Source: Deltaproteobacteria bacterium
Lineage (GTDB): Bacteria; Desulfobacterota; Deferrimicrobia; Deferrimicrobiales; Deferrimicrobiaceae
Length of the DNA: 64,000 nt
NCBI GenBank assembly: GCA_016218975.1
Contig: JACRCO010000071.1
Location: forward strand, 7,723-71,722
Direction of reading: 5' to 3'
In this document: positions 1 through 24,400 of the stretch, in pieces
How positions within the stretch are numbered: the stretch's first letter is position 1
How the letters are laid out: each line of letters begins with the position of its first letter
Translations under genes and position numbers: made by a program
Notes under the pieces: model-generated
What the model was told of the DNA's origin: nothing
Database searches by the model: none
What the model saw: only the letters and a program-made list of their open reading frames with translations

Positions 1-396
1 CCCGACCCGGAGCATAAACCGCCCCGTATGAATACCGGCCAGACGAAGAGGGGTTACTCCCTTCGGCTCGTCACGAAGAAAAACATCCGCCCCGTCCGGA
101 TCGGAAAAGACGCGGATAATTCCTCCTCTGGGACCCTCCCCCTTGAAAGATTCGCGCAATGCCGCAAGCGCGGAATTGTCAAGCCCCTGGCCCCGAAGTC
201 TGTTCTCCACTTCCTCCGATATGCGAAAATCGACGCCGTGTTCCCTGACAAGGTCCGACACTCTCCTGCTCGTCACGCTGTTGGACAAAAGCATCTCTAT
301 CTCGTCCAGGGCGAGCGGACGCCAATCCGATCCGAGGGAATCCCGGCAAAAAAGACCGATCAACAGAAAGAGCAAGATGCAAATATTCGGTTTTTT
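1..396 (-). CDS. Secreted/lipoprotein-like hypothetical protein; 3' end lies beyond window position 1, start codon uncertain
   Basis: Minus-strand frame not in the ORF track (runs off the window edge). It translates to ...KKPNICILLFLLIGLFCRDSLGSDWRPLALDEIEMLLSNSV...RLAGIHTGRFMLRVG with a signal-peptide-like N-terminus (KK + hydrophobic stretch + Cys). No ATG/GTG/TTG lies in frame upstream of the KK; candidate starts are CTG at 396 or TTG at 375. It is co-directional with the two genes upstream. Preferred over the + strand ORF 28..423. Confidence 0.35.
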
Positions 397-497
397 CAGG
401 CCCGTATCTCCATAAACATGTAATCGTCAGCGGATTGCATTTCTACCCTTTAGACAAACCTCGAAACAGGATACGAATTCCTTCGGGATATTTCGAA

Positions 498-1259
498 TTA
501 CTTTCCGTTCGTATTTTTCTCCCTGTTCTGCCGGAGGGTCTGTTCGGCGACAGCGGCCTTCCTCGCTTTTTCGACCCCTTCCCTGGCTGCGCGGTTATCC
601 TTGTCCAGGCTCAGTATCCTGCCGTAGATCTCGATCGCTTTTTCGTATTGACCTTCATCCCTGAATGCATCGCCAAGTTCCCTGTAACGATCGATCAACT
701 CCCTTCCCGCGGTTCCGGACGGCCTCTTCGAGGAATCCGAACGGGCAATCAGGTCCTTCTCCTTTTTCTGTTTGCGAGGCAACCGGGTTGCCTTTCCCTC
801 ATCAACCGCCGTTTCCAGCTGAGTCGGTTTTTCCACCGATCCCGTTTTTCGGGCGACACCGACGACATCCCCGGATATCGAATTATCCGCCACCAAATTG
901 CCGGGCAAAGCGGTTTTCGCCCTCGCTGCATCGGAACCCGTCGTTTGACTGGAACCCACATTTCGGGTCCCTCTGATGGAGTACAATACGGCGATAAGGA
1001 ACACCCCGATCATTGCAGCGGGCACAACCCGGGTCAATACGCTGCGGTCGCCGGGAAACCTTTTTTTGACATTCCCGATCCGTTCCCGGACAAACACCCC
1101 CAAGTCCGGATATTTCCTGTAGAGATAATATCCGAACGAAGCGACAAGTATCGATGCGGCGAGGATGGAACCAAAAACGTTTCGCACATTCCCGTAACCG
1201 GAGTCGCCGCCGGGAATTGAATTCAAATAAAAATCGATAAGACGGTCGAACCGGGTCAT
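498..1259 (-). CDS. Membrane-anchored TPR-repeat protein (hypothetical)
   Basis: ORF 253 aa. N-terminal hydrophobic helix (GSILAASILVASFGYYLY). C-terminal TPR-like repeat (GDAFRDEGQYEKAIEIYGRILSLDKDNRAAREG). The opposite-frame ORF 435..1220 is low complexity. Confidence 0.55.
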   Translation of the reverse strand: MTRFDRLIDFYLNSIPGGDSGYGNVRNVFGSILAASILVASFGYYLYRKYPDLGVFVRERIGNVKKRFPGDRSVLTRVVPAAMIGVFLIAVLYSIRGTRNVGSSQTTGSDAARAKTALPGNLVADNSISGDVVGVARKTGSVEKPTQLETAVDEGKATRLPRKQKKEKDLIARSDSSKRPSGTAGRELIDRYRELGDAFRDEGQYEKAIEIYGRILSLDKDNRAAREGVEKARKAAVAEQTLRQNREKNTNGK

Positions 1260-1302
1260 GCCGATTCTGTTTGCCGAAGGAAAAGAAACTGTTTAAAGAC
1301 AT

Positions 1303-2379
1303 TCATTCGCATGAGAACTTGTTCTTTAGCCCGACATATACTTCCCGGATTTTCAATCGAGCCTCCACAACATCCCGGAACGGAATCCCTTTCTTCGTCA
1401 TTTCATCTTCCACGCGATCCATATGATCATTTAGGAGCCCAAAATATCCTTCGTCTCCAAGCGCGGACAAGATTCGTCCGACCTCCATCCGAAAGAGATC
1501 GAAGGCACGTGGATTCCTTATGAGAAACTCCGCCCCTTCCTTATTCATCAATAACTTAGTTTCTAATCCTCCTTCCTCCTTGAGGAGGAAAGACGGATCG
1601 CCTTGCCGTATTAATAACAACGGATTTTCAATCCGATTTCCGTTCCTCAGGTCCGATAATTGCTTCGCCTCGCACCATACGCCGTTTCCGTCCCGGGTAA
1701 AGAACAGTTGCGTGATCACCTTGAACAGGTCGGCCACTGTTTTTCGACGTTCATCGGTCCCCTGATCGGCCGTCGCATCATTTACTTTTTCTTCGACATG
1801 CAACTCCGCTTCTGCGGCGGATGACTCCGACGCAGGCTCAACCCGCTGCCCCACAACATCATCGGCAAGACATGGAAATTCACGCAGGCTCCATACTTTG
1901 TCCGGCGCTTCCCGAATGCCGTCGGCAGTAACCGTCTTCTTTCCTGAAGTCGCTGCCTCTTCGCCCCCCCGGTCCTCCGATAAATCCTTAATTCCCCCGC
2001 GGAACTTGAAAGCAAAAAACAAGCTTCCGAGAACGAATGCACAGGGAAGAATCCAATGCGCGGGGGACGTGACCCCAAGTGCTCCGACGAGAAGCAGCAG
2101 AACGAGGACCAGACCCGCGAACGGGGCCGAAAGCCATATTTTCCCGCGAAACCCGAAAGGCTTGAACCGGTCAGTCGAGGGACCGTTTAACGAACGCCAG
2201 CTTGCATATTGAGACAACATCCCAACTCCAAGAAATGCTAATCCAATGACAAAATCCGCACTGCTTTTCATGGAGGTAAAGAGGATTAATCCGGTCGCGC
2301 CGAATAGCGCTCCCGTAAAATAGGCAGCCTCGAGACCAAGGATTGCGGAGCGAGCAAGATGCGGTTTGTCAGTAGACAT
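1303..2379 (-). CDS. Polytopic membrane protein with cytoplasmic C-terminal domain (hypothetical)
   Basis: ORF 358 aa with about four N-terminal hydrophobic helices (LILFTSM.., FVIGLAFLGVGML.., GLVLVLLLLVGALG.., ILPCAFVLGSLFFAF) followed by an acidic linker and a soluble domain. No recognisable family from sequence alone. Confidence 0.5.
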   Translation of the reverse strand: MSTDKPHLARSAILGLEAAYFTGALFGATGLILFTSMKSSADFVIGLAFLGVGMLSQYASWRSLNGPSTDRFKPFGFRGKIWLSAPFAGLVLVLLLLVGALGVTSPAHWILPCAFVLGSLFFAFKFRGGIKDLSEDRGGEEAATSGKKTVTADGIREAPDKVWSLREFPCLADDVVGQRVEPASESSAAEAELHVEEKVNDATADQGTDERRKTVADLFKVITQLFFTRDGNGVWCEAKQLSDLRNGNRIENPLLLIRQGDPSFLLKEEGGLETKLLMNKEGAEFLIRNPRAFDLFRMEVGRILSALGDEGYFGLLNDHMDRVEDEMTKKGIPFRDVVEARLKIREVYVGLKNKFSCE

Positions 2380-2712
2380 TACATCTCGTTTCGATCACCG
2401 GATTATCGGATCGCTTTCGACCGAACCGGCCTAATTATATAGGGGAAAAATTAACTTCGCCACATCCAACCATCGATCCCTCAACTAACTGATTTCAAAC
2501 GCTTAAACCACCTTCGCATCACCACCCCTGCCAGAAACCGCCGCCGCCTTTCCCTTCCCGATTTACGTGCTCCACAGGGGATTTCTCGTCCCAGGAGATT
2601 TTTGATATCATTCCAACATTTCCATGGCGATCGTATTCAGTCAATTGGAGCGAGATTCTTTTACTGCGGTGCGTATATATTTTGGAGAGAATCAGCATGG
2701 CAGAGGATTGAA

Positions 2713-3819
2713 ATGAGTCTCATGCAGGAAGGACAGATCATTCGCGGGACGTATGAAGTCGAACGCCTGCTTGGCGAAGGCGCCTTCGCGGAAGTCTACC
2801 GCGTAAAGCATCGCTTCCTGGGACGGCAGGCCATGAAGGTTTTCAAGATGATCGGTATGACGATAGAAGAAACGGAACAAATGCTGGGAGAGGCGATCAT
2901 GCTTTCCCGGATCAGTCATCCGAACATCGTCCAGGTATTCGACGCCAACATCACCGAGACCTCAAGGGGAATCTGCGGTTTTTTCACGATGGAGTACGTT
3001 GCGGGAGGAAATCTCGAGCAGTATTGGAGATCCCACGGCGCGAGGTTCGTCCCGCTGAAGTCCGTGGTGGAAATCATCAAGCAGGTTTGCCGGGGCCTCT
3101 CCGTCGCGCACGGAGAGAATCCCCCGATCGTCCACCGGGACATCAAGCCGCATAACATCCTCGTTGGGTACGACGCGGCAGGACTGCGCGTCCGGGTCAG
3201 CGATTTCGGCCTCGCCAAGCGGGTGAACCCGCTGACCCTGAGGGCAAGCACGCGCGGAACACGCTGCTTCAAAGCTCCTGAGGCATTCAAGGATCCGCAA
3301 AGCGACTCGTGCACGGCGGACGTTTGGTCAATCGGAGCCACACTCTACCTTCTCCTGACGGACAGGCTTCCGTACGCGGATCCCGACGGGTACGACGTGT
3401 TCGATCCGGAAGCGTTCGAGAGGCCGATGCTTCCTCCGAGCCGGTTAAACATCGAAGTGGACGCCACCATCGACCGGATCCTGGAAAAAGCTCTTGATCG
3501 CCGGCCGGAGCACAGGTACAGGGACGCGCAGAGCCTTCTGGAGGATCTTTTGAAGTGGAAGCCGCGAACAGGGGGAAAGACATCACCCTCCGGCGGTGCG
3601 GATTCCAGTGGGTGGTCCAAGAGCGCGCTGGGCACTCATACTCCCGCCGATGAGGAACAGGCCAAGGCGATGGCAGATCAGGCCCTCGCGCTATCTCGAC
3701 AGGCGGAGATGCTGGCCGAAGCGGCGGACCTCATGGAAGAAGCGTTCAACAAATGCAGGGACCTTCGAACGAAACACGAGTATCAAGTTCGACTCTGGCG
3801 CAGGGGAATCGCATACTGA
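2713..3819 (+). CDS. Hanks-type serine/threonine protein kinase
   Basis: Within ORF 2602..3819. Start taken at ATG 2713 (MSLMQEGQIIRGTYEVERLLGEGAFAEVYRV). Gly-rich loop GEGAFAEV, VAIK-like AMKVFK, catalytic loop HRDIKPHNIL, DFG motif (VSDFGLAK), APE motif (FKAPEAF). Confidence 0.85.
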   Translation: MSLMQEGQIIRGTYEVERLLGEGAFAEVYRVKHRFLGRQAMKVFKMIGMTIEETEQMLGEAIMLSRISHPNIVQVFDANITETSRGICGFFTMEYVAGGNLEQYWRSHGARFVPLKSVVEIIKQVCRGLSVAHGENPPIVHRDIKPHNILVGYDAAGLRVRVSDFGLAKRVNPLTLRASTRGTRCFKAPEAFKDPQSDSCTADVWSIGATLYLLLTDRLPYADPDGYDVFDPEAFERPMLPPSRLNIEVDATIDRILEKALDRRPEHRYRDAQSLLEDLLKWKPRTGGKTSPSGGADSSGWSKSALGTHTPADEEQAKAMADQALALSRQAEMLAEAADLMEEAFNKCRDLRTKHEYQVRLWRRGIAY

Positions 3820-3845
3820 GCGAATACCGACGGAGCGCGTGAAGC

Positions 3846-5513
3846 GTGAGTGAAGCGGGTTTGGAAAAAAGGGATGACCGGCCGTCATCCGGTCCCGATA
3901 TCCTTCTGGCATCGGGCCGACCGGACCTTTACCGGAAGAATCCGTTCCGTGTCGCATGCCTGCCCGTGGACGCAACCCCAAGGGAGATATCGAAACAGAT
4001 CCACGCAATGGAAATGGAGGCGAAGTTCAGCGGAAAACTCCCGATGGGAAACCTTCCGCTGGATCCTCCGCCCGACCTGGATACCATTCGGGAATCCATA
4101 CATCGCCTCCGCGATTCGGAAGAGCGCCTTGTCGCAGAACTTTTCTGGATTTGGCCCAATCCGTCGGACAAGGGAACGGCGGATGAAGCCATGGTGGCCT
4201 TTTCGCGGGGGGATATCCACAAGGCAAAACAAATCTGGACGGCACGGGAGAGGACGGACGGCGTAAAAGGCATTCCGTCGCACAATCTGGCCGTCCTGGC
4301 TCATGCATCCGCCCTGGATCTCGAAGCACAATCCCTGTTTTTCCCTCTCTCGCGAACCCAGATCCATCAAAGAGAGGCGTACTGGAACGATGCCCTGGCG
4401 AAATGGAAGGCTGTGCTCGAGTGCGAAGGTTTCTGGAGCCGCGTTTCGACTCGCATCCGGGAACTCGATGACCCGCGCCTTAAATCAGGAGCCGCCCGCA
4501 GAATAAGGACTTCCCTTCCATCGGCCCTTGTTTCCATAACGGTGCGGCTGGCCGTCGCCGCAGCGGAAAAGGGAAACGATCCGGAGATCCGTAGACATCA
4601 TTCCATCCTCAAGAAGTGGGACGATGCTCTTTCCGGGCGGCAATCCGGCGGAAATTCATCGATATACCGTTCCCCAATCATCGTCGACGCTCTCCGGCAA
4701 GGCGTCGATCCGCTTCGCCAGCGGATCAAAGCGCTGACGAGGGCCGCGGAAAAAGACAAGGAAGTCAATGCCCGTAACGGACATTCGATCGCATCGAATC
4801 TTATCGAGCATTCGAGGCCCGTTCTTTCCGTGATGGACTCTATATTGCCGGAGGATTTCTCTTCCGGGGAAGCCGCTCATGACGAGGTTGCTCTTTCCCT
4901 TCATTCCTGCATCATCTCCTTCGGCGTCGAAACGAAGGACTGGAAGACGTGCGGAGAACTTCTTGAAATCGCGCTGGCAGTCGCGGCCGGGGAAGCCGCC
5001 AAAAGCAAGATCAAGGAAGATTTGCGGACAGTAAAGGAAAATCACGAATTCGGGAAAGTCCATGATACATGTTGGTTTTGCGGAAAGCAGCCGAAAGAGG
5101 AATCGCATTCCATCGAAGTCAGGATGCACGGCAATATTCAGCGAACACCGACAATCGGCGGGACGAATATCACCTGGCGACACATCAGAATCGTCGTTCC
5201 CAGGTGCGGGAAATGCCGTGCGGCTCATGCGAAAGCTTCCGAATGGGCCGCTATCGGCGGGATCGGCGGAGCGGTTGCAGGCGGATTGACCGGGTGCGGC
5301 GCAATCGGACACGGCGGGGCCGGAATATTGCTCATGATCTTGTTCGGCGCCGTCGGATTCCTGATCGGAAAATCGATCGATGAGAACAACCTGAGCGCCA
5401 TAAAAAATGCACATGCGGATTTCAAGCCTTTCAGCCACAGGAACGAATTCCCCCAGATCAAGCAACTCCTTTCCGAAGGGTGGCAATTCGGCGAAAGACC
5501 GAACAACAACTAA
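3846..5513 (+). CDS. J-like (HPD-less J-domain) protein with C-terminal zinc ribbon and Gly-rich membrane anchor
   Basis: ORF 555 aa with GTG start at 3846, 27 nt after the kinase stop. The N-terminus NPFRVACLPVDATPREISKQIHAM...IRESIHRLRDSEERLVAELF resembles J-domain helices II and III (compare [24 protein letters not shown]...EAYEVLSDPEKRAAYD) but lacks the HPD tripeptide. C-terminus has CWFCGK...PRCGKC (zinc-ribbon-like four Cys), then GGIGGAVAGGLTGCGAIGHGGAGILLMILFGAVGFLIG (Gly-rich hydrophobic helix). Confidence 0.6.
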   Translation: MSEAGLEKRDDRPSSGPDILLASGRPDLYRKNPFRVACLPVDATPREISKQIHAMEMEAKFSGKLPMGNLPLDPPPDLDTIRESIHRLRDSEERLVAELFWIWPNPSDKGTADEAMVAFSRGDIHKAKQIWTARERTDGVKGIPSHNLAVLAHASALDLEAQSLFFPLSRTQIHQREAYWNDALAKWKAVLECEGFWSRVSTRIRELDDPRLKSGAARRIRTSLPSALVSITVRLAVAAAEKGNDPEIRRHHSILKKWDDALSGRQSGGNSSIYRSPIIVDALRQGVDPLRQRIKALTRAAEKDKEVNARNGHSIASNLIEHSRPVLSVMDSILPEDFSSGEAAHDEVALSLHSCIISFGVETKDWKTCGELLEIALAVAAGEAAKSKIKEDLRTVKENHEFGKVHDTCWFCGKQPKEESHSIEVRMHGNIQRTPTIGGTNITWRHIRIVVPRCGKCRAAHAKASEWAAIGGIGGAVAGGLTGCGAIGHGGAGILLMILFGAVGFLIGKSIDENNLSAIKNAHADFKPFSHRNEFPQIKQLLSEGWQFGERPNNN

Positions 5514-5538
5514 CCGGAACGAAAATGGAATTTCCACG

Positions 5539-6126
5539 ATGACGACGGGCAAGGACATGAAATCGATGTGGCACTCAAGATCCGGCGCGTTTTCCGCGGA
5601 ATTGAGACAGCTTTACCATCCGAAGGAGTTTCAGATTCCCACGGTGGAATGGCCGGCCGACCTGATCGGTGCGATGGAACGCCTAAGCCGGGGCATGCTC
5701 GATTCGCAATCGAAGGGCATCCAGGGGGTAGAAAACCATTCCGACGATGCTGCGCGCCGCGATGAGTACCGGTTGTTCGCCGAGATAGGAACCGGTTTAT
5801 GGAGATTGAAGAGGCGGATGGTTCACCCGCAAACCGGGCGGCCGCAGGAAGAAATGAAGCGTGCTTTTCGTCACCTCGAATCTGTTTGGGACACGCTCGT
5901 CCAGGCGGGATTCGAGATTCGGGATCACACGGGGGACACAATGCCGGAAGGGGGTATATACGGCTTGAAGGTCATCGCGTTTCAGCCCGCCGCGGGCATC
6001 AGCCGTGATGTCGTTATCGAAACGGTCAAACCCTCCGTCTTCCGCATGAACAAGATGATCCAGATGGGAGAAGTCATCGTGGGCACTCCGGAAATAACGC
6101 CGGCCCCGCAAAAAGCGAAGGATTGA
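5539..6126 (+). CDS. GrpE-like nucleotide-exchange-factor candidate (divergent)
   Basis: Within ORF 5407..6126. Start taken at ATG 5539, just after the upstream stop at 5513. The C-terminal region AGFEIRDHTGDTMPEGGIYGLKVIAFQP...VKPSVFRMNKMIQMGEVIV aligns in spacing with the GrpE beta-sheet domain (G-V-E-[IL]...D-P..H-A...Q-K-G-Y-x-L-N-x-R-V-[IL]-R-x-A-x-V-x-V). It is divergent: the canonical DPxxH-A signature is not conserved. AAGGAGA RBS precedes the downstream Hsp70 gene. Confidence 0.45.
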   Translation: MTTGKDMKSMWHSRSGAFSAELRQLYHPKEFQIPTVEWPADLIGAMERLSRGMLDSQSKGIQGVENHSDDAARRDEYRLFAEIGTGLWRLKRRMVHPQTGRPQEEMKRAFRHLESVWDTLVQAGFEIRDHTGDTMPEGGIYGLKVIAFQPAAGISRDVVIETVKPSVFRMNKMIQMGEVIVGTPEITPAPQKAKD

Positions 6127-6159
6127 GGATCAGGGAATCCACTCAAGGAGAAACCCGAC

Positions 6160-8652
6160 ATGTCCAGAACGACCATAGACTTCGGAATCGATTTGGGAAC
6201 GACGAACAGCAGCATAGGGGTTATCCGGGGGACCGAGGTCGATATCATCCTGAACAACGAAAGTCAGCCGATCACGCCTTCCGCCGTGATGGTCGACAAG
6301 GGGGGGAGGATCATCGTAGGGCGCAGCGCCAAGGAAGGCCTCATGAAAGACCATGAAAACGCCTTCTGCGAATTCAAGCTCCAGATGGGAGAGAACACCG
6401 AATACGTTTTTCGGCGGAGCGGACGGCGATCGAAACCCGAAGACCTCTCGGCGGAAGTTCTCAAATCCCTTAAAGCGGACGTGAGGCTGAAGTTGAAGGA
6501 AGATATCGAAGCTGCGGTGATCACCGTGCCCGCAGCCTTCGAACTTCCGCAATGCGAAGCTACAAGGCAGGCCGCCCAACAAGCCGGCCTGCACACGACC
6601 ATCCTGATTCAGGAACCCGTCGCGGCCGCCTTGGCCTATGGATTTCAAACCGAAAGCGAGAAGGTATATTGGCTGGTCTACGATCTCGGGGGAGGAACGT
6701 TCGACGCCGCCGTCATGCAGGTACGGGACGACGAAATCCGCGTCGTGCATCATGACGGCGATAATCACCTCGGGGGAAAGCTTATCGATTGGGCAATCGT
6801 CGAGGATCTCCTAGTCCCGGCATTGCTCAAAGAACATCGTCTTCCTGATTTCCAACGCGGTAATCCGAAATGGGAGGGCGCGTTCCATGCACTGAAATGC
6901 TACGCGGAAAATGCGAAAATCCGCGTCTCCCGGGATGAAAAGGCGTATATCGACATCCCATTCATCTGCCATGAATATCCGAAGCCGTTCGAGTTCGAAT
7001 TGAAGCGGGATGACGTGGAGCGGCTTGCCCGGCCGATAATAATCCGCTCGATCAATCTATGTAAAAAAGTGTTGGCGGAAAAGCGGCTTGGGTTTGCCGA
7101 CATCGAAAAGGTACTTCTCGTGGGTGGTCCGACGTTGATGCCCTACTTGAGAAACCTTCTCTCGGACACCAACGACGGATTGGGAATCCCCTTGTCATAC
7201 ACGAACGATCCGCTCACTGTCGTCACCCACGGGGCGTCAATCTATGCGGGAACCAAGCGGCTGGAATCGGCAACCCCAATAAAAGCCGCCAAGGGACAAT
7301 ATGTCGTCGATCTCGAATACAAACCCAGCGGCCCGGACACGGAACCGTTCGTTTGGGGACGCGTCCGGGGATACGATGGAGAAATTCCGGACGGATTGAC
7401 GATCGAATTCATAAACACGGACTGCCGTCAGCAATGGCGAAGCGGCAGGATAGGAATTTCTCCCGACGGTACATTCAGGACGAACGTGCTGGCCGAGAAG
7501 GGACGAAGGAATGTGTTCTCGATCGAATTGTTCGATGCAAGGGGGACGAAACTCAATTGCCAGCCGGACAACTTCGCATACACGGTAGCGATTGAAATCG
7601 TCGACCCTCCTCTACCCCACAATGTGGGAGTCGCACTGGTCAACAATGATATGAACTGGGTGCTCGAAAAAGGCACGCCGCTGCCGGTAAGGAGAAAAAC
7701 CGATCTGAAATCCGCCTTCGAAGTCCGCAAGGGGGTGAAGGAACATATCATCAAGATCCCCTTGATGGAGGGGCAGAAAGCCCGGGCCAACCGAAACAAG
7801 TATATCGGGACTCTCGAAATTTACGGAGATCAAATAACCCGGGATGTTCCGGCAGGCAGCGACGTCGAGGTAACAATCCATATCGACCAGTCCCGTCAAA
7901 TGGTCGCGAAAGCCTACATCCCCATTCTCGATGAAGAATACGAGTTGAAATTCAATAAGAACGGCTACAGCGACAAAAGGAACCAAGAGGAAATCGCCAA
8001 GGAGCTTGAAATCCAGAAAAAGAGACTGGAGACCGTCCGTGAGAAAGCCCGCGGAATCTCTGACGGCGACGCCCGGCGCATCCTGCAACAAATCGACGAA
8101 GAGAGAATGATCCAGGACGTGGAAAAATCGCTGGCCGCATCACGCACCGACCGCGACGCCTCCGTCAAATGCGAAAAGAGACTTCTCGACCTCATGTCGG
8201 CGATCGACGAGGTCGAGGATGCGATAGAGTGGCCATCCCTCGTGTCGAACGCGGAGCGGGAGATCGAGGAGGAACGCAAAATCGTCAACAATAACGATTT
8301 CGGTGTAAAACCCGACGAGAAGAGACTTTTCACCGATCTGGAGCGCGAGGTCAGAACCGTGATGGATACACGGGACGCCGACCATCTCGCGCTTAAGGTC
8401 CGGGAACTGGAACGGCTGGGGATAACCATTCTGTTCCGCCAGCCCGGATGGTGGGTCGGATGTCTCGATCATCTGGAAAACCGAAGATCGACGATGAGCA
8501 ACCAGGACCTGGCCGGAAACTACATTGCGCAAGGCCGGAGGGCAATCAATACCGGCGATCTAGAATCCCTCAAGGCCGCAGTGCGCCAACTCTGGGGATT
8601 GCTGCCCCCGGGAGACAAGGATCGTGAAATATTTTCGACCGTAGGAAAGTAG
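6160..8652 (+). CDS. Non-canonical Hsp70 (DnaK-like) ATPase, 830 aa with extended coiled-coil C-terminus
   Basis: N-terminal actin-fold ATPase motifs: IDLGTTNSS; ITVPAAFELPQCEATRQAAQQAGLHTTILIQEPVAAALAYGF; VYDLGGGTFDAAVMQV; GDNHLGGKLIDWAIVE. Substrate-binding-domain-like middle region. About 250 aa of charged, coiled-coil-like C-terminus that canonical DnaK lacks. AAGGAGA RBS 8 nt upstream. Confidence 0.85.
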   Translation: MSRTTIDFGIDLGTTNSSIGVIRGTEVDIILNNESQPITPSAVMVDKGGRIIVGRSAKEGLMKDHENAFCEFKLQMGENTEYVFRRSGRRSKPEDLSAEVLKSLKADVRLKLKEDIEAAVITVPAAFELPQCEATRQAAQQAGLHTTILIQEPVAAALAYGFQTESEKVYWLVYDLGGGTFDAAVMQVRDDEIRVVHHDGDNHLGGKLIDWAIVEDLLVPALLKEHRLPDFQRGNPKWEGAFHALKCYAENAKIRVSRDEKAYIDIPFICHEYPKPFEFELKRDDVERLARPIIIRSINLCKKVLAEKRLGFADIEKVLLVGGPTLMPYLRNLLSDTNDGLGIPLSYTNDPLTVVTHGASIYAGTKRLESATPIKAAKGQYVVDLEYKPSGPDTEPFVWGRVRGYDGEIPDGLTIEFINTDCRQQWRSGRIGISPDGTFRTNVLAEKGRRNVFSIELFDARGTKLNCQPDNFAYTVAIEIVDPPLPHNVGVALVNNDMNWVLEKGTPLPVRRKTDLKSAFEVRKGVKEHIIKIPLMEGQKARANRNKYIGTLEIYGDQITRDVPAGSDVEVTIHIDQSRQMVAKAYIPILDEEYELKFNKNGYSDKRNQEEIAKELEIQKKRLETVREKARGISDGDARRILQQIDEERMIQDVEKSLAASRTDRDASVKCEKRLLDLMSAIDEVEDAIEWPSLVSNAEREIEEERKIVNNNDFGVKPDEKRLFTDLEREVRTVMDTRDADHLALKVRELERLGITILFRQPGWWVGCLDHLENRRSTMSNQDLAGNYIAQGRRAINTGDLESLKAAVRQLWGLLPPGDKDREIFSTVGK

Positions 8653-8653
8653 C

Positions 8654-9565
8654 ATGAGCGTAGATCCGATATCCGCCGCGTTAGCCCCTCTCATTCGGAA
8701 CGCCTTGATTTCCCGGGCGGCCAGCCTTGCAAGAAAAGGGAGTTACACTGAAGCGGAGAACCTGCTCGCTGCGGAAACCGGAGGAAAAGTAGAACACCCC
8801 TCGGTTCTCGACCTGCTCGCCCGTATCAAGGCACAACAGGGAAAGCTGTTCGAAGCGGAAGAATTGTGGACGAAGGCGTCCCGCATGGAACCGGGCAATC
8901 CAGAATATCAGGCCGGCTTGAGGCGGATTTCGCAAATCAGAAAGAGGGGATTCTCACGGCGATCCCTGCTCACATCCACAACAGCAGTTTGCGGGGTCCT
9001 GGTCCTTCTCGCCGCGGGTATCTTTCTGAAAATCCGTTTCACGGAATCGGGCGTTCGCAACGAAACCGTTTCCGGCAAGGTCGGCGGATCTTACGCCGAC
9101 GGAATCCCCGCTTCGGCAACCGGCGTGCTGCAATCCATCGTGCTCGACATCCCCGGTGGAATCGTAACAAAAAGGAACTCGGGTTTCGATATCACATTCG
9201 AATACGGACTTTTTTCTTCGAAGGTCCGACTCAAGGGCAAGGCGAAAAAATCCATCGCCGCCCTCGCCCGCCGACTGGAACCATACAAGGAACGGATTTC
9301 CATAACCGTGATCGGTCATGCGGACAGCAATCCGGTTCCGGATGGCGCGTATTTCAGGGACAATATGTCCCTCTCGCTCGCCCGGGCCGTCGCCGTGATC
9401 GAGTCGATGCGCTCGGCTGCCTCCCTCCCCTCCGGGATCTTCCTGGCAACGGGATACGGCGAATATTCCCCTCCGTATTCAAACAGGACGAGAAATGAAC
9501 GTCTTCGCAACAGGTCGGTTACGATAAAGATATCGGCGCAGGGGACAAATCCAACACTTCCATAG
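8654..9565 (+). CDS. TPR-containing, membrane-anchored OmpA/MotB-domain (peptidoglycan-binding) protein
   Basis: Starts 1 nt after the Hsp70 stop. N-terminal TPR-like segment, one TM helix (AVCGVLVLLAAGIFL). C-terminal OmpA-like domain (ITVIGHADSNPVPDGAYFRDNMSLSLARAVAVIESM...RNRSVTIKI). Confidence 0.75.
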   Translation: MSVDPISAALAPLIRNALISRAASLARKGSYTEAENLLAAETGGKVEHPSVLDLLARIKAQQGKLFEAEELWTKASRMEPGNPEYQAGLRRISQIRKRGFSRRSLLTSTTAVCGVLVLLAAGIFLKIRFTESGVRNETVSGKVGGSYADGIPASATGVLQSIVLDIPGGIVTKRNSGFDITFEYGLFSSKVRLKGKAKKSIAALARRLEPYKERISITVIGHADSNPVPDGAYFRDNMSLSLARAVAVIESMRSAASLPSGIFLATGYGEYSPPYSNRTRNERLRNRSVTIKISAQGTNPTLP

Positions 9566-9592
9566 CGCGAATGATATCTACCCGCGCATGGA

Positions 9593-11107
9593 TCACCCTT
9601 CTCCGTCCCCGGTCCACTCGAACAGGGTTTCGGGGATTTTCTTCGTCCACGAATATTTCCCCTGGAACATTTGTCTGGCTTGTCCCCGGCTCGTACCCGC
9701 CTCGCGGAAGAACCGGTCCACAAACGCGCTCGGCGACAGCAGCAAAGCGTAAAAGAGATGCTTCTTCTCCACGAACTTCCGCCCTTCGTCGCCGGCTACG
9801 AAGCGGGCGTCCTCAAGTACACGCCGGTAGTTCAGGGTCGGCCGCGGGATAGCACCCTTCGTGCGGATGCCTGCCCTCGAGATTTTCCTGTATATTCCGA
9901 GGAGGAACGTCCGGTCGGCAGCTAAATATGAAAAAATTTGTTCCATAAAAGGATCTTCCGCCCCCTCGTACAACAGGAAACTACCGAAAAGGTGCCGTGT
10001 CTCGAGAGTGGCGTATCCTTCCTCCCGGGCGATAACTTCCGCTCGCCTAATCACCTCGACCGCTCCCGGCTGGAACGGAAACTGGAGAGGCGCCACCGTC
10101 TGGCGCGCCGCAGCGACATCGACGGCAAAGAGGAATCGGTCCTCATGGAGAAGTTCGCATGCAAGGCCTGCGGACTCATTGAACGAAAGAACCTTCCCTG
10201 CTCTTCCCGTCACTCCGGTTGCTTCAAGGAGTAGCAGTTTCGCCTTCCTTATCGCATCGATCAACCGTCCGGGATCGGTCACAACCGGTTCGAATCGTTC
10301 GGACAGATCGGTCCAGCACCCGAGAAGGCAATGGAGGAAGCTCTCTCCCTCCCGGACGACGATCAGCAACGGCTGAAGACGGACGCTTTCAAGGCACGAC
10401 GCAAACAGGAGACAAAGGTCGATGCAGGTGCCCACACCCGCTTTCTTTTCGACGGACGGAATGATTACATGCGGAGGGCGGATGACCTGGCAGTCCCGCT
10501 CGTAACTCGGGGGTTCGAACGCATACCGGATCCGGTATTCCCGGGCAAGGCAATCGTAGAGAGCTTTGTTTACACCTTCGGTTCCGCCGACCCACCCAGC
10601 CCTTCTAAACGGATCGAACAGGTAGGAGGACGCATCGGCGCCCAGCCGATCCGCCGAATCCAGGAGAATATGCTGAACGACCGGGTGGGAAGGCTGAACG
10701 AACGCCGCAAGGCTCGCACGGAATTCTGAGGCCAACGGCCATTCATAGAATCCGAGAATAGGGATATCATCTGTCCGAGCCTTCCGGCCGTCGATGTAAA
10801 AATCCAGCCTCCCGTTCTTTTTCCCCTCTTGCCCTTCAAGGATTTCGTATCGGAGGACCGGGGAGATCCCGGAGACCGTGATTTTTCCCCCGGGAAGTAT
10901 CGGGCCCAGGCGCCGTTCCCACCGTTCTCCATACCCCGGAATCTCGAACCCCACGACCGGGGTAACGGGCGAATGACCTTCATTCCGAACGACAAAATCG
11001 GAAATAACGGGAATGCCGCAGTGATAAAGGACATAATTTACCGCGGAAGCTTTTCGGTAGGAGACCGCAAGATCCCCCATCCGGAACCTGACGAAAGCTG
11101 ATTTCAT
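9593..11107 (-). CDS. Transglutaminase-like cysteine-protease-domain protein with C-terminal Clp-N-like repeats
   Basis: ORF 504 aa. Core GVGTCIDLCLLFASCLESVRLQPLLIVV...H...D resembles the transglutaminase-like Cys-His-Asp core (G.C.DFA.LF.AL.RA.GIPAR). The C-terminal half has two Clp_N-type repeats (ATLETRHLFGSFLL..., KKHLFYALLLSP). Overlaps the upstream anti-sigma gene by 4 nt. Confidence 0.55.
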   Translation of the reverse strand: MKSAFVRFRMGDLAVSYRKASAVNYVLYHCGIPVISDFVVRNEGHSPVTPVVGFEIPGYGERWERRLGPILPGGKITVSGISPVLRYEILEGQEGKKNGRLDFYIDGRKARTDDIPILGFYEWPLASEFRASLAAFVQPSHPVVQHILLDSADRLGADASSYLFDPFRRAGWVGGTEGVNKALYDCLAREYRIRYAFEPPSYERDCQVIRPPHVIIPSVEKKAGVGTCIDLCLLFASCLESVRLQPLLIVVREGESFLHCLLGCWTDLSERFEPVVTDPGRLIDAIRKAKLLLLEATGVTGRAGKVLSFNESAGLACELLHEDRFLFAVDVAAARQTVAPLQFPFQPGAVEVIRRAEVIAREEGYATLETRHLFGSFLLYEGAEDPFMEQIFSYLAADRTFLLGIYRKISRAGIRTKGAIPRPTLNYRRVLEDARFVAGDEGRKFVEKKHLFYALLLSPSAFVDRFFREAGTSRGQARQMFQGKYSWTKKIPETLFEWTGDGEG

Positions 11108-11790
11108 ATCAAAAACGGTCTGTACTCACCGTCGGGGACGCCTTCGAATTCGGTCACGAGAATATCCCCTCCCGGCTGCGAAACCGCCCTAAATGCGCCG
11201 ATCAGAGGCTCCCCCCCATGCTCCGGGACGAGGAGGACGATGGGCCATGGTTCATCGAGCATCTGTGATGCAACCGAGATTGTACGCGAAGCGGCGCTGG
11301 CGGTTATTTTCATCCATGGCGGCCCGCCCGTTTCCACCGTGACGACCTCCGATCCCCCTGCGCCGCGGATACGGCCTTGTGATACGGTAGCAAACAGCGG
11401 ATTCGGCCCCCCCGAAAAGATATTTTCAAGCTCCTCTCCGGCGCCTTTCGCGATTCTCCCTCGCGCGTCAAGCAGAAACCGGACAGGACTTCGAACCTTT
11501 CCACCGAATTTCTCAACCCAGGAAGCGATCCTCGCAGCGATCCGGGTATCCCCGGCATATGCAGGAAGGAACCCCTGAATCGCCCGTTTCGAAGCATCGG
11601 GTCCGACGCCTCCGGATGTCCACCATTCCCAGACCTCGCCGAACCATTCCTTGATAAGAAAGCATCGCCGAACCTTGCCCGCGCAGAGGTCGCACGAAGC
11701 CATGTGGACCTCAGCGCGAAAAGCTTCCTCTCCGGAAACAAGATCCCGGACATATGCCTGCATTTCCTTAAGCGTCAGGTGCGCGATCAT
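11104..11790 (-). CDS. Zinc-finger anti-sigma factor (putative)
   Basis: N-terminus MIAHLTLKEMQAYVRDLVSGEEAFRAEVHMASCDLCAGK carries the H-x3-C-x2-C zinc-binding anti-sigma motif. Start overlaps the sigma gene stop by 4 nt (operonic). Confidence 0.6.
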   Translation of the reverse strand: MIAHLTLKEMQAYVRDLVSGEEAFRAEVHMASCDLCAGKVRRCFLIKEWFGEVWEWWTSGGVGPDASKRAIQGFLPAYAGDTRIAARIASWVEKFGGKVRSPVRFLLDARGRIAKGAGEELENIFSGGPNPLFATVSQGRIRGAGGSEVVTVETGGPPWMKITASAASRTISVASQMLDEPWPIVLLVPEHGGEPLIGAFRAVSQPGGDILVTEFEGVPDGEYRPFLI

Positions 11791-12674
11791 CGCTCGATCT
11801 CCGGCGTCAACTCGTCTCCCTGCGGTTCGACGTCGAATTCCTCCTTGATCCTTTTCTTCACTTTATGGCACCAGTCGTAAATGGAAGACTCCCTCCGATC
11901 TTCGGCGGTGATGAATTTTCCCAGCGGGATATCGCGGACCTTCCCGTCCCCGCATAAATCCCTGATGTCGAGGTATTCCTTCTCGACATAAACTTCCCGG
12001 GCCGTTCTCTCAAGGGATCGGTTCGTGCCCTCCCAGCAATTGCGGTAGGCCGCGCGGGAAACCATTTCCGAAGGATCGGAAAAACCGCCAGTGAACGATT
12101 GATGGTGGATATCGATCAGGCTTTCGAGGAGATCCCCCAATCGGCGGTTTTCGCTGTTTTTCAGGAAAAATCGCGGTTTCCAATGCAGCAGCTTGACAAA
12201 CCCGAAGGCAATGGCCTGATGAGGTTTGACTGAACACTCCGAGAGCGCCTGGATCATCAACAGGGAGGTCTGGGGATCCGGATGGACGGGCGTGCTGAAT
12301 GCCGGCCGGGGAAGCGGGTTTCTTTCAGCGAAGTCGATCATTCCCTTTTTCATTTTCGTCAAGTAACGCAAATAGACGAATCCCGCCAGATTGCGAAGAA
12401 AAGTGAAAAAGGCATATTCGTACTTGTACTTGCCCCCAAGCAGATTTTTATACGCATAGATGAACGTGTCCTGGCAAAGATCTTCATGAGCGCTTTCGTC
12501 CCAAACGCGGCACCGAAAGTACCCCTTTATCGCCTCGTTATACGCATCGTAAAGTAGTTCCCATGCGGACATGTCCCCGTTTCCGGCAAGTTCGGCGAGG
12601 CGGCGCTGTTCTTCCCTGGATAAAGCGGCATCGGCCACCGCCGACCTCCATTCCATCCGGTATGCGATCGACAT
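11787..12674 (-). CDS. RNA polymerase sigma-70 family factor (ECF-like, divergent)
   Basis: ORF 295 aa. Region-2-like DLCQDTFIYAYKNL and downstream FLRNLAGFVYLRYL. Adjacent and coupled to a zinc-finger anti-sigma gene. Longer than typical ECF sigma factors, so the assignment is moderate. Confidence 0.5.
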   Translation of the reverse strand: MSIAYRMEWRSAVADAALSREEQRRLAELAGNGDMSAWELLYDAYNEAIKGYFRCRVWDESAHEDLCQDTFIYAYKNLLGGKYKYEYAFFTFLRNLAGFVYLRYLTKMKKGMIDFAERNPLPRPAFSTPVHPDPQTSLLMIQALSECSVKPHQAIAFGFVKLLHWKPRFFLKNSENRRLGDLLESLIDIHHQSFTGGFSDPSEMVSRAAYRNCWEGTNRSLERTAREVYVEKEYLDIRDLCGDGKVRDIPLGKFITAEDRRESSIYDWCHKVKKRIKEEFDVEPQGDELTPEIER

Positions 12675-21523: not shown

Positions 21524-24400
21524 GTGGGCATCCTGCGGATCCCCGTCACCACCTATCGTCTCCAATTCAGCCCGCGGTTCCGGTTCAAGGACGCGCAGGA
21601 GATCCTCGCCTACCTGGACGCGCTCGGCATAACGGACGTATATGTGTCTCCCCTATTCATGGCTCGCAAGGGGAGTTCCCACGGCTATGACGTGACGGAT
21701 CCGTCGAGGCTCAATCCCGACCTCGGCTCCGGGGAAGAATTCGACACGCTGGCAGCCACCCTCAACGGCAAGGGGATGGGGCTTCTCCTGGACATCGTCC
21801 CCAACCACATGGCCGCAGGCAGCGAAAACCGCTGGTGGATGGACGTGCTGGAAAGGGGCGTGGGCTCGGCTTACGCCAGGTTCTTCGACATCGACTGGCT
21901 CCCTTCGAAAAAGGCGCTGGAAAGAAAAATCCTTTTGCCCATCCTCGGAGGCCCGTATGGAGACGTCCTCGAAAACCGGGAGTTGACCCTGTCCCTCGAC
22001 AAAAGCGGGTTCATCGTCCGCTATTCCGGGATGAAACTTCCCGTATGCGTAAAATCCTGCAACAGGATCCTGTCGCACAGAATAGAGACAGTGGAGGAAA
22101 CCTACGGGCGGGACTCGCCGTCGTTCCGGGAACTGTGGGAACTCATCGCATCCATCGACCGCCTGCAGGATACGGCGGCGCCGGAACCTGCCTACACGGC
22201 CGCAAGGACTGCGGAAGAGGAATCGATCAAGCGGAAACTCGGGCGCCTCTACAGGAACCGTCCCGAGGTCCGGTCGTTTCTCGAAGAGAACATCCGGATC
22301 TTCAACGGGCGCAAGGGGGAACCTGCGAGTCTCGAACTCCTTGACCGCCTTTTGTCGGAGCAGCATTACTGGCTGTCCTACTGGCGGTTCGGAAACGAGG
22401 AGATCAACTACCGCCGGTTTTTCACCATAAGCGACCTGGTCGGCCTCCGGGTCGAAGAGCTCGAGGTGTTCAACGCCACGCACGATCTGGTACTGCGGCT
22501 TGCCAGGGAAGAAAAAGTCACCGGCCTGAGGGTGGATCACATCGACGGTCTTTCCGATCCGCTCGGTTACCTTACCACCCTTCGGGACCGTATCGCCGGA
22601 TCGGCGGAAGCAGGTGCGGAAACGGCGGGATGCTTCTATACGGTGGTGGAGAAGATCCTGCAGGGAGACGAGGATATCCCGCCGGAGTGGCCCGTTAACG
22701 GCACGACCGGATACGATTTCCTGAACGCGGTGAACGGTGTTTTCATAAGCGCCCGCGGAGTCCGTGAGCTTGACGAAATATATGCGCGCTTCATAGGGAG
22801 GAAAACGAATTTCGGAGACCTGGTTTACAGGTGCAGGAAACTCGTCATGGAGGCGCATTTCGCCGGCGAGATGCATTCGCTGGGGAAATACCTCGGCAGC
22901 ATCGCGGAACAGGACCGCCGCGGGCGGGACCTCCCGAGGAAGGAGCTGCGGCAGGCGATGATCGAGGTTACCGCATGCTTTCCGGTCTACCGTACTTATA
23001 TACGCGGCCCCGATATCTCCGCCAGGGACAGGCTTTACATCGGCAGGGCGATTCGGGAAGCCCGCCGGCGCGGCGCAGGGATAAGCTCGCCGGTATTCGA
23101 TTTCGTGGCCCGGATCCTGTTGCCGGAAGGGCCTTCCTCCTTCTCCGGAGAGCATGGCCAGGACCGCCTCCGTTTCCTGATGCGCTGGCAGCAGTTCACG
23201 GGACCGATAATGGCGAAGGGATTCGAGGACACCGCGCTGTATCTCTACAACCGGCTCGTATCGGCGAACGAAGTGGGCGGGGAGCCGGCCTCCCCCGCCG
23301 TCGCCCCGGCGGAGTTTCACCGTCGGGCAAAAGCCGCGCTTTCCCGTTTTCCACACGGAATGAACGCCACTTCAAGCCACGACACGAAACGAAGCGAGGA
23401 TGTGCGCGCCCGCATCGACGTCCTCTCCGAACTCCCTGCGGAATGGGAGAAGCGGCTTCTTCTGTGGAGCCGCTGGAACTCCGACAGGAAACGGTCCGTC
23501 GGCGGGAGGCACGTCCCCGATCCGAGCGAGGAGACCCTTGTCTACCAGACGCTGCTCGGCGCCTGGCCCTTCGAAGAGGTGGAAATCCCCTCGTTCGCGG
23601 AAAGGGTGAAGGACTACATGGTAAAGGCGGTGAGGGAGGCGAAAGCCCACACCCATTGGGATCGGCCGAACCATCCTCACGAAAACGCCGTGAGGGACTT
23701 CGTGGACGCCATCCTGGAAGGCCGGGGAGAGAGCCGGTTCTTCGAGGACTTTCTCTCCTTCCGGAAAAAGATCGCCTGGTACGGTGCGCTCAACAGTCTC
23801 TCGCAGGTCGTTCTGAAAATCGCTTCTCCTGGTGTGCCCGATTTCTACCAGGGGACGGAATTGTGGGACTTCTCTCTCGTCGATCCGGACAACCGGCGGC
23901 CGGTCGATTTTTCCCGGCGCTCAATTCTTCTGGGCGAATCGATCGACAGGAAAAACCGCGATCCGTTGTCTTTCATACTGGAGATCCTCGCGGGCTGGGA
24001 GGACGGACGGATCAAGCTGTTCCTTACGCACTCGGCCCTGAATTTCCGGAGACTGCACCGGGAGCTGTTTCAGGCCGGTTCCTACATTCCGCTCGGGGCT
24101 TCGGCGGGGAAAAAGGAGCATGTCCTCTCCTTCGCCCGGGAGCGAAACGGATTCTGGGTAATCGCCGCCGTACCGAGGCTGATGACGCGCCTCGCGCCGC
24201 CTGGCGAATTTCCCCTGGGCAGGAAAACCTGGGGGGCGCAAGGCGGTCTTCTCCTCCCGGTGGAATCCCCGGTCCGGTGGACCGACGTATTCACGGGCGA
24301 AACGATGGATGCAACGCAAGAGGCAGGGAAGAAGTTGCTTGCGCTGGACCGCGTATTCGAATCCTTCCCGGTGGCGATCCTTTCGGGGAGCGGCCGATGA
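21524..24400 (+). CDS. treY: Malto-oligosyltrehalose synthase (TreY)
   Basis: Within ORF 21161..24400. Start taken at GTG 21524, after a GGGGAG RBS and 5 nt after the upstream stop. N-terminus TTYRLQFSPRFRFKDAQEILAYLDALGITDVYVSPLFMARKGSSHGYDVTDPSRLNPDLG is the canonical TreY N-terminus. About 958 aa. Confidence 0.85.
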   Translation: MGILRIPVTTYRLQFSPRFRFKDAQEILAYLDALGITDVYVSPLFMARKGSSHGYDVTDPSRLNPDLGSGEEFDTLAATLNGKGMGLLLDIVPNHMAAGSENRWWMDVLERGVGSAYARFFDIDWLPSKKALERKILLPILGGPYGDVLENRELTLSLDKSGFIVRYSGMKLPVCVKSCNRILSHRIETVEETYGRDSPSFRELWELIASIDRLQDTAAPEPAYTAARTAEEESIKRKLGRLYRNRPEVRSFLEENIRIFNGRKGEPASLELLDRLLSEQHYWLSYWRFGNEEINYRRFFTISDLVGLRVEELEVFNATHDLVLRLAREEKVTGLRVDHIDGLSDPLGYLTTLRDRIAGSAEAGAETAGCFYTVVEKILQGDEDIPPEWPVNGTTGYDFLNAVNGVFISARGVRELDEIYARFIGRKTNFGDLVYRCRKLVMEAHFAGEMHSLGKYLGSIAEQDRRGRDLPRKELRQAMIEVTACFPVYRTYIRGPDISARDRLYIGRAIREARRRGAGISSPVFDFVARILLPEGPSSFSGEHGQDRLRFLMRWQQFTGPIMAKGFEDTALYLYNRLVSANEVGGEPASPAVAPAEFHRRAKAALSRFPHGMNATSSHDTKRSEDVRARIDVLSELPAEWEKRLLLWSRWNSDRKRSVGGRHVPDPSEETLVYQTLLGAWPFEEVEIPSFAERVKDYMVKAVREAKAHTHWDRPNHPHENAVRDFVDAILEGRGESRFFEDFLSFRKKIAWYGALNSLSQVVLKIASPGVPDFYQGTELWDFSLVDPDNRRPVDFSRRSILLGESIDRKNRDPLSFILEILAGWEDGRIKLFLTHSALNFRRLHRELFQAGSYIPLGASAGKKEHVLSFARERNGFWVIAAVPRLMTRLAPPGEFPLGRKTWGAQGGLLLPVESPVRWTDVFTGETMDATQEAGKKLLALDRVFESFPVAILSGSGR

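Follow-up and report, generated by a model that had tools for sequence, protein, structure and literature searches.

A widespread J-like protein family without HPD, encoded beside a non-canonical Hsp70, a GrpE-like protein and a Ser/Thr kinase

The tripeptide His-Pro-Asp (HPD) is regarded as a defining and indispensable feature of the J domain. Each of its residues has its own contact on the Hsp70: H33 touches the linker backbone at L391, P34 is packed against P419, and D35 forms hydrogen bonds with R167 and Q378; R167/I168 are clamped by D481 (Mayer 2021, PMC8215388). The closest characterised analogue of the system described here is that of HscC with DjlB and DjlC in E. coli, in which a specialised Hsp70 is found beside membrane-anchored proteins with an N-terminal J domain; the same locus has the Sel1/TPR-like neighbours YbeQ and YbeT. 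A J-like subunit without HPD is found in the mitochondrial import motor, where Pam16/Tim16 (Magmas) works with Pam18, mtHsp70 and Mge1/GrpE; in that motor the Hsp70 is a canonical one, and Pam16 acts through Pam18, a true J protein with which it pairs. Here we describe a gene for a protein of 555 amino acids (aa) with an HPD-less J-like domain, found in a 64,000-nucleotide (nt) stretch of contig JACRCO010000071.1 of a Deltaproteobacteria metagenome-assembled genome (MAG; assembly GCA_016218975.1, positions 7,723 to 71,722 of the forward strand), hereafter the window. It is the second of five same-strand genes, separated by gaps of 1-33 nt, which encode a Ser/Thr kinase, the J-like protein, a GrpE-like protein, an Hsp70 and a protein with TPR, transmembrane (TM) and OmpA-like regions; we refer to these five genes as the cassette.

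Comparison with HscC and DjlB/DjlC found the same pairing of an Hsp70 with a membrane-anchored protein that has its J-type domain at the N-terminus, the proteins of the two systems having about 480-555 aa, and likewise a TPR protein among the neighbours. However, DjlB and DjlC keep H-P-acidic in the form of HPE, which the J-like family lacks; HscC has no exchange factor, whereas the cassette has a GrpE-like gene together with a kinase and an OmpA-domain protein; and DjlB/DjlC are tail-anchored, whereas the predicted anchor of the J-like protein is a hairpin followed by a predicted cytosolic tail. No full-length homology between the J-like protein and DjlC was detectable (BLASTP E 0.94, hhalign probability 0.4%). 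The likeness to Pam16/Tim16 lies in an HPD-less J fold at the membrane with an Hsp70 and a GrpE-type factor, but the cassette contains no HPD-bearing J protein and its Hsp70 lacks the residues that receive HPD. With DnaK-DnaJ-GrpE the cassette shares the three-part logic of Hsp70, J-type and GrpE-type proteins, and the catalytic residues and the beta part of the substrate-binding domain (SBD-beta) are recognisable in its Hsp70. In contrast, none of HPD, R167, Q378, D481, R151 and the VLLLD linker is retained, the Hsp70 carries a 110-aa insert and a 240-aa C-terminal extension, and the J-type protein, unlike DnaJ, is predicted to be membrane-bound and is of neither class A nor class B. No description of a kinase/J-like/GrpE/Hsp70/OmpA cassette was found in the literature searched, a search of limited coverage. 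The system is an HPD-independent variant of the J-protein/Hsp70/GrpE theme, partly glimpsed in a computational study (Kaur, Burroughs, Iyer and Aravind 2020, eLife; PMC7159879) and otherwise undescribed in the searchable literature. In that study the absence of HPD is not mentioned, the kinase/OmpA cassette was not found, and the only mention of OmpA concerns iSTAND systems; its supplement has no searchable text on HSP70/DnaJ.

The gene for the J-like protein begins with GTG, with GGAG located 11 nt 5′ of it; the NCBI annotation begins at a TTG five codons later. The product is 100% identical to the NCBI entry 'hypothetical protein HY896_10000'. The peptides quoted in a first-pass annotation, a reading of the DNA made from its letters and open reading frames, were all found exactly in the translation and belong to the best conserved part of an alignment of 60 homologs. 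A word-indexed search yielded 125 homologs. An exhaustive profile search of 1.84 billion representatives of clusters at 50% identity gave 1,472 matches at E<=1e-30, a number that rose to 3,600 with the cut-off relaxed to E<=1e-10, and 236 stretches matched the family in a scan of one genome per species. Members were found in Planctomycetota, Chloroflexota, Acidobacteriota, Nitrospirota, Myxococcota, Bacteroidota, Verrucomicrobiota, Actinomycetota and other phyla, including the cultivable genera Actinomadura, Spirillospora, Thermomonospora and Parafrankia, and the five cassette genes co-occur across at least 10 phyla. The J-like family is real, widespread and unannotated.

In the AlphaFold2 (AF2) model the J-like domain consists of a helix I region (residues 26-36), helix II (45-61), a loop (62-77), helix III (78-89) and helix IV (91-99), and is closed by an invariant FWxWP junction at residues 100-104. 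The ~90 N-terminal residues are the best conserved part of the 60-sequence alignment, with the consensus PDLYRxNAFRxxGLPVxAxxRDIxRxxxxLxxxxKxG...LPLDPPPDxxxxRxAxQRLxDPERRLxDExFWFWP; R35, E98, W101 and W103 are invariant, and Y29, R30, N32, F34, L72, L88, D90, P91, R94, L95 and P104 are conserved in at least 90% of the homologs. The first-pass annotation had read this region as following the helix II/III pattern of J domains; the alignment holds across the 60 orthologs, and both profile and structure searches returned J domains. A profile built from 49 N-terminal segments aligned with eight canonical J domains colinearly over helices I-IV (hhalign probability 95%, E 3.3e-8). When 177,635 distinct PDB sequences were searched by profile, 12 matches were obtained, nine of them to J domains (DnaJ, Ydj1, DNAJB9 and DNAJC8), and Pfam DnaJ (PF00226), the sole family matched by more than two members, matched six of the 49 (best E 0.011). 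The AF2 full-length model has a predicted local distance difference test score (pLDDT) of 91.5 and a predicted TM-score (pTM) of 0.84, and the J-like domain alone a pLDDT of 82. In a Foldseek search of the PDB with the domain model, ranks 1-32 were all J domains, the best being 2och (probability 0.97, TM-score 0.52/0.69). Helix II, whose basic face is the hallmark surface for docking on Hsp70, is basic across the family, with a mean net charge of +2.4 compared with +2 to +5 in canonical J domains, and its basic positions are conserved (R46 in 88%, K/R50 in 83%, K/R54 in 72% and K/R60 in 77%).

Some points speak against a J fold. The reference J-domain sequences used with hhalign were a small set typed by hand; the 12 PDB profile matches have E-values of only 0.16-1.4, those to J domains 0.16-0.8, and Foldseek E-values against J domains were about 0.5; Pfam DnaJ did not match the 555-aa protein at E<=1, and sequence searches with that protein against Pfam, NCBIfam, PADLOC and the PDB gave no useful match. 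No single E-value is significant; the case is carried by the agreement of the methods and the exclusivity of their matches. On these grounds we conclude that the first ~80 residues of the protein form a true J-domain fold. As a separate observation, many family members (homologs P0009-P0013, P0016, P0018, P0019 and P0056) have an extra CxxC...CxxC zinc-ribbon extension N-terminal to the J-like domain.

HPD was found in none of the 60 aligned homologs, and none of HPD, HPE or HPN in any of the 219 family members carrying the domain. Its absence is thus consistent among orthologs. All five cassette proteins likewise lack the tripeptide, and the search of the 64-kb window for a DnaJ homolog found none, although the rest of the genome could still encode a J protein. 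It had been proposed that HPD is replaced by a Pro-rich LDPPPD stretch. HPD is indeed gone and the loop is Pro-rich, but its place in the profile alignment is taken by S62-G63-K64 (G-x-x in the family consensus), and LDPPPD lies 10-15 residues beyond SGK, just before helix III. The II-III loop is about 16 residues long and is ordered in the AF2 model (pLDDT 83-91). It usually carries LPLxPPPD, and one whole subgroup has ...GPGRALPLxxxxD instead; a PP[DTSENG] motif is present immediately before helix III in 119 of the 219 members.

A partner Hsp70, as the first-pass annotation had predicted, is encoded two genes downstream of the J-like gene within the conserved cassette. Sixty-three cassette Hsp70s were aligned to E. 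coli DnaK and HscC, and residues are numbered here as in DnaK. The nucleotide-binding domain (NBD) of the Hsp70 encoded in the window is 33% identical to that of DnaK, and the catalytic and phosphate-binding residues D8, K70, P143, E171, D194, T199 and D201 are invariant in all 63. P419 is retained in 62. In contrast to HscC, which, though divergent, retains R167, Q378 and R151, the cassette Hsp70s have replaced all three: R167 is Pro in 54, the remaining sequences having Ile, Thr, Ser or Val and none of them Arg; all 63 have Phe or Tyr in place of Q378; and R151, never Arg, is Cys in 48. D481 is changed to Ser in 61 and N170 to Gln in 50. The linker VLLLDVTP has become xPPL(I/T)HS. The insert (aa ~372-478, nt 7273-7593) is beta-rich and lies between the NBD and the linker, the C-terminal extension is helical with a conserved LLP...STV(R/K) end, and a deletion in lobe I and a short 203-222 hairpin, both shared with HscC, were also found. 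No Pfam family covers the protein past residue ~365, and no link to the Hsp70 StkA/SglK of Myxococcus was established.

The loss of HPD is therefore matched by the loss of its receptor on the Hsp70, which argues for a co-evolved pair in which the classical trigger is not used. Since the contact of HPD with R167 and Q378 is absent on both sides, any control of ATP hydrolysis must be HPD-independent. Two other ways of pairing the partners were considered and rejected. A charge swap between an acidic helix II and a basic NBD patch does not fit, as helix II is still basic and the NBD patch has become neutral, not basic. The resemblance of the J-like loop to the Hsp70 linker xPPL(I/T)HS, as in mimicry, was too weak.

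Partner genes were counted in 79 genome loci, and most absences fall at contig ends. The kinase gene is adjacent in 59 of these loci and also in L001, L004, L089 and L090, and the gene for the TPR-TM-OmpA protein, which also matches the NCBIfam TssL and MotB C-terminal domains, is present in 55. The gene order is identical in the metagenomic and Nitrospirota loci L001/L002, L004, L089 and L090, and is permuted, with no kinase, in Actinomadura (L003). The 195-aa product of the third gene is probably GrpE-like. Pfam GrpE matched eight of 23 relatives (best E 8.5e-5) but not the window copy, and residues 112-182 of the family profile aligned with 126-193, in the C-terminal half of E. coli GrpE, at an hhalign E of 0.0019 and a probability of only 14%; a profile search of the PDB with the family returned no GrpE. 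With its kinase and its peptidoglycan anchor, the cassette looks suited to a regulated role at the envelope and not to ordinary protein folding.

C-terminal to the J-like domain is an all-helical body, for which a Foldseek search of the PDB with the full-length model gave only weak matches to TPR, 14-3-3 and designed-repeat proteins (E>=0.012, TM-score <=0.2). Truncated and fusion homologs retain residues 1-~400, and in some relatives HEAT or TPR repeats replace everything past about residue 400. These swaps indicate a conserved core of J-like and helical domains with exchangeable localisation or interaction modules. In the window protein the first such module bears the CWFCGK and PRCGKC motifs that had been read as a zinc ribbon, a reading that is right in outline. 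C409, C412 and C454 are invariant and C457 is conserved in at least 90% of the 60-homolog alignment, and AF2 places strands 423-436 and 439-451 between the two CxxC knuckles. A four-Cys hairpin of this kind is consistent with a zinc ribbon, and the metal binding is putative.

The zinc-ribbon-like module is followed in the AF2 model by helices 455-489 and 492-522. The second segment of this hairpin is strongly hydrophobic, with a maximum Kyte-Doolittle value of 2.19. By the same scale most homologs show a pair of hydrophobic segments, separated by a short polar turn and flanked by basic residues, and 209 of 221 family members have a hydrophobic segment after the last CxxC. A GxxxG-rich membrane helix had been proposed here. 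The Gly-rich hydrophobic stretch does exist; however, it forms a two-helix hairpin with a tail behind it, and GxxxG, which occurs at 471, 475, 479 and 504 of the 555-aa protein, is not family-wide, the relatives keeping the hydrophobicity and not the pattern. The NCBIfam YiaD glycine-zipper model matched the protein weakly (E 0.066), and PstS matches over the same Gly-rich stretch were put down to chance. These features fit a predicted N-in/C-in membrane anchor with both ends in the cytoplasm. In the tail G545, W546, G549 and P552 are conserved in at least 90%, the pLDDT of residues 530-549 is 96-97, and the motif was found in 184 of 243 sequences; with a conserved tail after the hairpin, the protein is not a simple tail-anchored one. 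The coordinates of the protein, its parts and its cassette neighbours are given in Table 1.

Table 1. Features of the cassette and of the J-like protein, in window coordinates
Feature	Position (nt)	Strand	Basis and remarks
Soluble Ser/Thr protein kinase	2602..3819	+	Pfam Pkinase E 5.5e-43; likely start ATG 2713; HRD, DFG and APE motifs
Open reading frame of the J-like / helical / Zn-ribbon / membrane-hairpin protein	3846..5513	+	555 aa; alternative TTG start 3861
J-like domain, aa 26-104	3921..4157	+	hhalign, PDB-wide hmmsearch, Pfam DnaJ, AF2, Foldseek
Lengthened helix II-III loop, aa 62-77 (SGKLPMGNLPLDPPPD)	4029..4076	+	Conserved L72 and Pro-rich motif
All-alpha middle domain, aa 114-407, 13 helices	4185..5066	+	AF2 pLDDT mostly >90
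Zinc-ribbon-like module, aa 409-457: CWFC, beta hairpin 423-451, CGKC	5070..5216	+	Cys conservation, AF2
Hydrophobic helical hairpin, aa 466-510	5241..5375	+	AF2, Kyte-Doolittle; two helices joined by HGG
Conserved C-terminal tail, aa 511-555, FPxV...GWxxGE(K/R)P	5376..5510	+	Predicted cytosolic
GrpE-like protein, 195 aa, putative nucleotide exchange factor	5539..6126	+	In 67/79 loci
Cassette Hsp70, 830 aa	6160..8652	+	Pfam HSP70 E 1.8e-74; in 65/79 loci
TPR - TM (aa 103-131) - OmpA-like peptidoglycan-binding protein, 303 aa	8654..9565	+	Pfam OmpA E 3.5e-10 and TPR

We propose, with moderate confidence, that the J-like protein is a dedicated HPD-independent J-like adaptor of a self-contained, non-canonical, membrane-associated Hsp70 system. 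The hairpin would insert in the inner membrane so that its two ends face the cytoplasm. The J-like domain would use helix II to dock on the cassette Hsp70 and would thereby keep it at the membrane, beside the peptidoglycan-fixed TPR-TM-OmpA protein. Selection of a client or partner would fall to the all-helical domain and the variable C-terminal modules, resetting of the nucleotide state to the GrpE-like protein, and gating of the system probably to the kinase. Within this proposal, a J-like protein that serves as a stable tether or targeting factor is preferred over one that makes a rewired contact through the LPLxPPPD loop. The earlier reading, that the protein binds an Hsp70 without stimulating its ATPase, may be kept as one of two live options, the other being a rewired trigger.

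The family as a whole keeps a J fold, a basic helix II and linkage to Hsp70 and GrpE-like genes while lacking HPD, and its Hsp70 lacks the residues that contact HPD. It thus offers a natural experiment for asking if a J fold can control Hsp70 without HPD, and by what means. A 2026 review flagged a 'dark matter' of bacterial DnaK derivatives, and the J-like/Hsp70 cassette is a testable entry into it, with cultivable hosts available.

Several observations weigh against the adaptor proposal. Helix II of the 555-aa protein itself has a net charge of 0, and whereas in DnaK helix II is received by an acidic NBD hairpin (net -5), the corresponding hairpin of the cassette Hsp70s is shorter and close to neutral (-0.2). 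The invariant FWxWP suggests a fixed connection between the J-like domain and the helical body, unlike the flexible tether of most J-domain proteins. The first helix of the membrane hairpin is Gly/Ala-rich, with a modest maximum Kyte-Doolittle value of 1.44. Finally, no covariation was found between the PPP motif and Hsp70 positions 151, 167, 170, 173, 378 and 481, because those positions are nearly fixed.

As the cognate Hsp70 has lost R167, Q378 and D481, the pair may have rewired its trigger and not lost it. A further reading is an orthogonal Hsp70 cycle that needs no HPD trigger, fixed to the inner membrane and, by way of the OmpA-domain protein, to peptidoglycan, and switched by the kinase, in which a J fold with a Pro-rich loop gates ATP hydrolysis by an Hsp70 with a rewritten R167/Q378/D481/R151 set and linker; we put it forward tentatively, as possible and short of probable. 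If true, such a cycle would be functionally equivalent, in bacteria, to the mitochondrial import motor, or would form the NTP-driven switch of a conflict system.

Among the rival explanations, a rewired but active J domain, in which the LPLxPPPD loop and L72 would meet Pro167 and Phe378 and trigger ATP hydrolysis, survives best, and we consider it rather doubtful. Both sides have changed together and in the same direction, from polar to Pro or aromatic; the loop is ordered and L72 is well conserved; the Hsp70 retains its catalytic machinery and P419, the contact of the HPD proline; and a GrpE-like exchange factor is kept, implying a working ATPase cycle. Nevertheless, position 167 is Pro whatever the loop type, and every HPD mutant tested so far has abolished stimulation (Mayer 2021, PMC8215388). 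The option is further weakened because only about half of the family has the PP motif, the GPGRALPLxxxxD subgroup lacking it, and because no covariation was seen.

A role in a conflict or regulated-assembly system, with Hsp70/GrpE/J-like as an NTP-driven switch, the Gly-rich hairpin as a membrane-acting output and the kinase as sensor or trigger, is a serious rival, though not the majority context, and we regard it as unlikely. HSP70, GrpE and DnaJ/TPR were reported, computationally, in ~14% of GAP1-N2 neighbourhoods (Kaur 2020, PMC7159879), which is the same kind of module as that described here, and two such loci hold members of the J-like family (L088 and L074). In L088 (1-21827; JGI 3300045950, Ga0484001_0000190) the J-like, GrpE-like, Hsp70 and TPR-OmpA genes, the Hsp70 being 56% identical to that of the window, are embedded amid GAP1-N2/GAP1-M, Fn3 (1250 aa), WD40 and DO-GTPase genes. 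Loci L001 and L090 are flanked by TIR_2, NUDIX, REase-ARP, IS110 and integrase genes; the kinase scores well against PADLOC kinase models; and the phyletic spread is patchy and the GC content of the cassette region lower. However, DO-GTPase or Fn3 neighbours were found in only one of the 79 genome loci (L074) and GAP1 in none, so that 78 of the 79 lack all three, as does the window, where tblastn found no match to DO-GTPase or GAP1 genes; a Ser/Thr kinase heads the cassette instead. No PADLOC model matched the J-like, GrpE-like or Hsp70 proteins, the cassette has no recognisable toxin or nuclease domain, and L003, L004 and L089 sit among housekeeping or signalling genes. Since HEAT repeats replace the hairpin in some members, the hairpin is not an indispensable effector.

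It is improbable that the J-like domain survives only as a structural relic and has a partner other than Hsp70, as has been suggested for some J-like proteins, the protein being a client or regulatory target of the Hsp70/kinase pair. This would account for the absence of HPD, for the loss of the acidic NBD patch and for a domain seemingly welded to the helical body by FWxWP, and a truncated copy with helices I-II heads a HEAT protein in L088. It is opposed by the strong purifying selection that acts on the basic helix II face and on RLxDPExR, the J-type signature of helices III/IV, and by a gene that stays with the Hsp70 and GrpE-like genes even when the kinase or the C-terminal modules change. 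Weakest is chance resemblance, that is, an N-terminus that is a generic helical bundle unrelated to J domains, which we judge very improbable: it draws on the lack of any sequence E-value significant at database scale and of a Pfam match to the 555-aa protein, but in three independent methods J domains take the top ranks almost to the exclusion of other folds, all four helices align colinearly, and the gene is operonic with Hsp70 in 65 of 79 loci.

Some members of the family differ in architecture or copy number. The HEAT protein of L088, 407 aa long, begins with only helices I-II of the J-like domain. Homolog P0020 bears an N-terminal FHA domain, which hints at a possible phospho-threonine-dependent coupling to the cassette kinase. 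The Planctomycetaceae MAG JTS-RE27 has two J-like copies, one in a full cassette (L037) and the other with no partner genes within 8 kb (L054). In an Anaerolineales locus (L051 11081-16044), two atypical Hsp70 paralogs of 822 and 832 aa are encoded in tandem, and the J-like protein of that locus has 800 aa and a different C-terminus.

The GC content of window positions 1-12000, which include the cassette, is 0.53-0.58 compared with 0.60-0.675 in 12001-64000, a difference compatible with horizontal acquisition. No tRNA or integrase gene was seen at the boundary of the low-GC region; tRNAs are located at 23300 and 25407. Three genes convergent with the cassette lie on the minus strand at 9593-12674, and were not kept beside the cassette in the other loci inspected. 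They encode a 504-aa product with no Pfam match and two proteins with weak ones, of 227 aa (zf-HC2, an anti-sigma-type zinc finger, E 0.0065) and 294 aa (Sigma70_r2, E 0.0085); the latter two may be a divergent sigma/anti-sigma pair.

Both the J-like protein (FPxV...GWxxGEKP) and the cassette Hsp70 (LLPxxxx…STVxK/R, nt 8560-8652) end in conserved short motifs. TPR domains commonly bind C-terminal peptides, such as the EEVD of eukaryotic Hsp70, and by analogy one of the two tails may be a ligand of the cytoplasmic TPR domain of the cassette.

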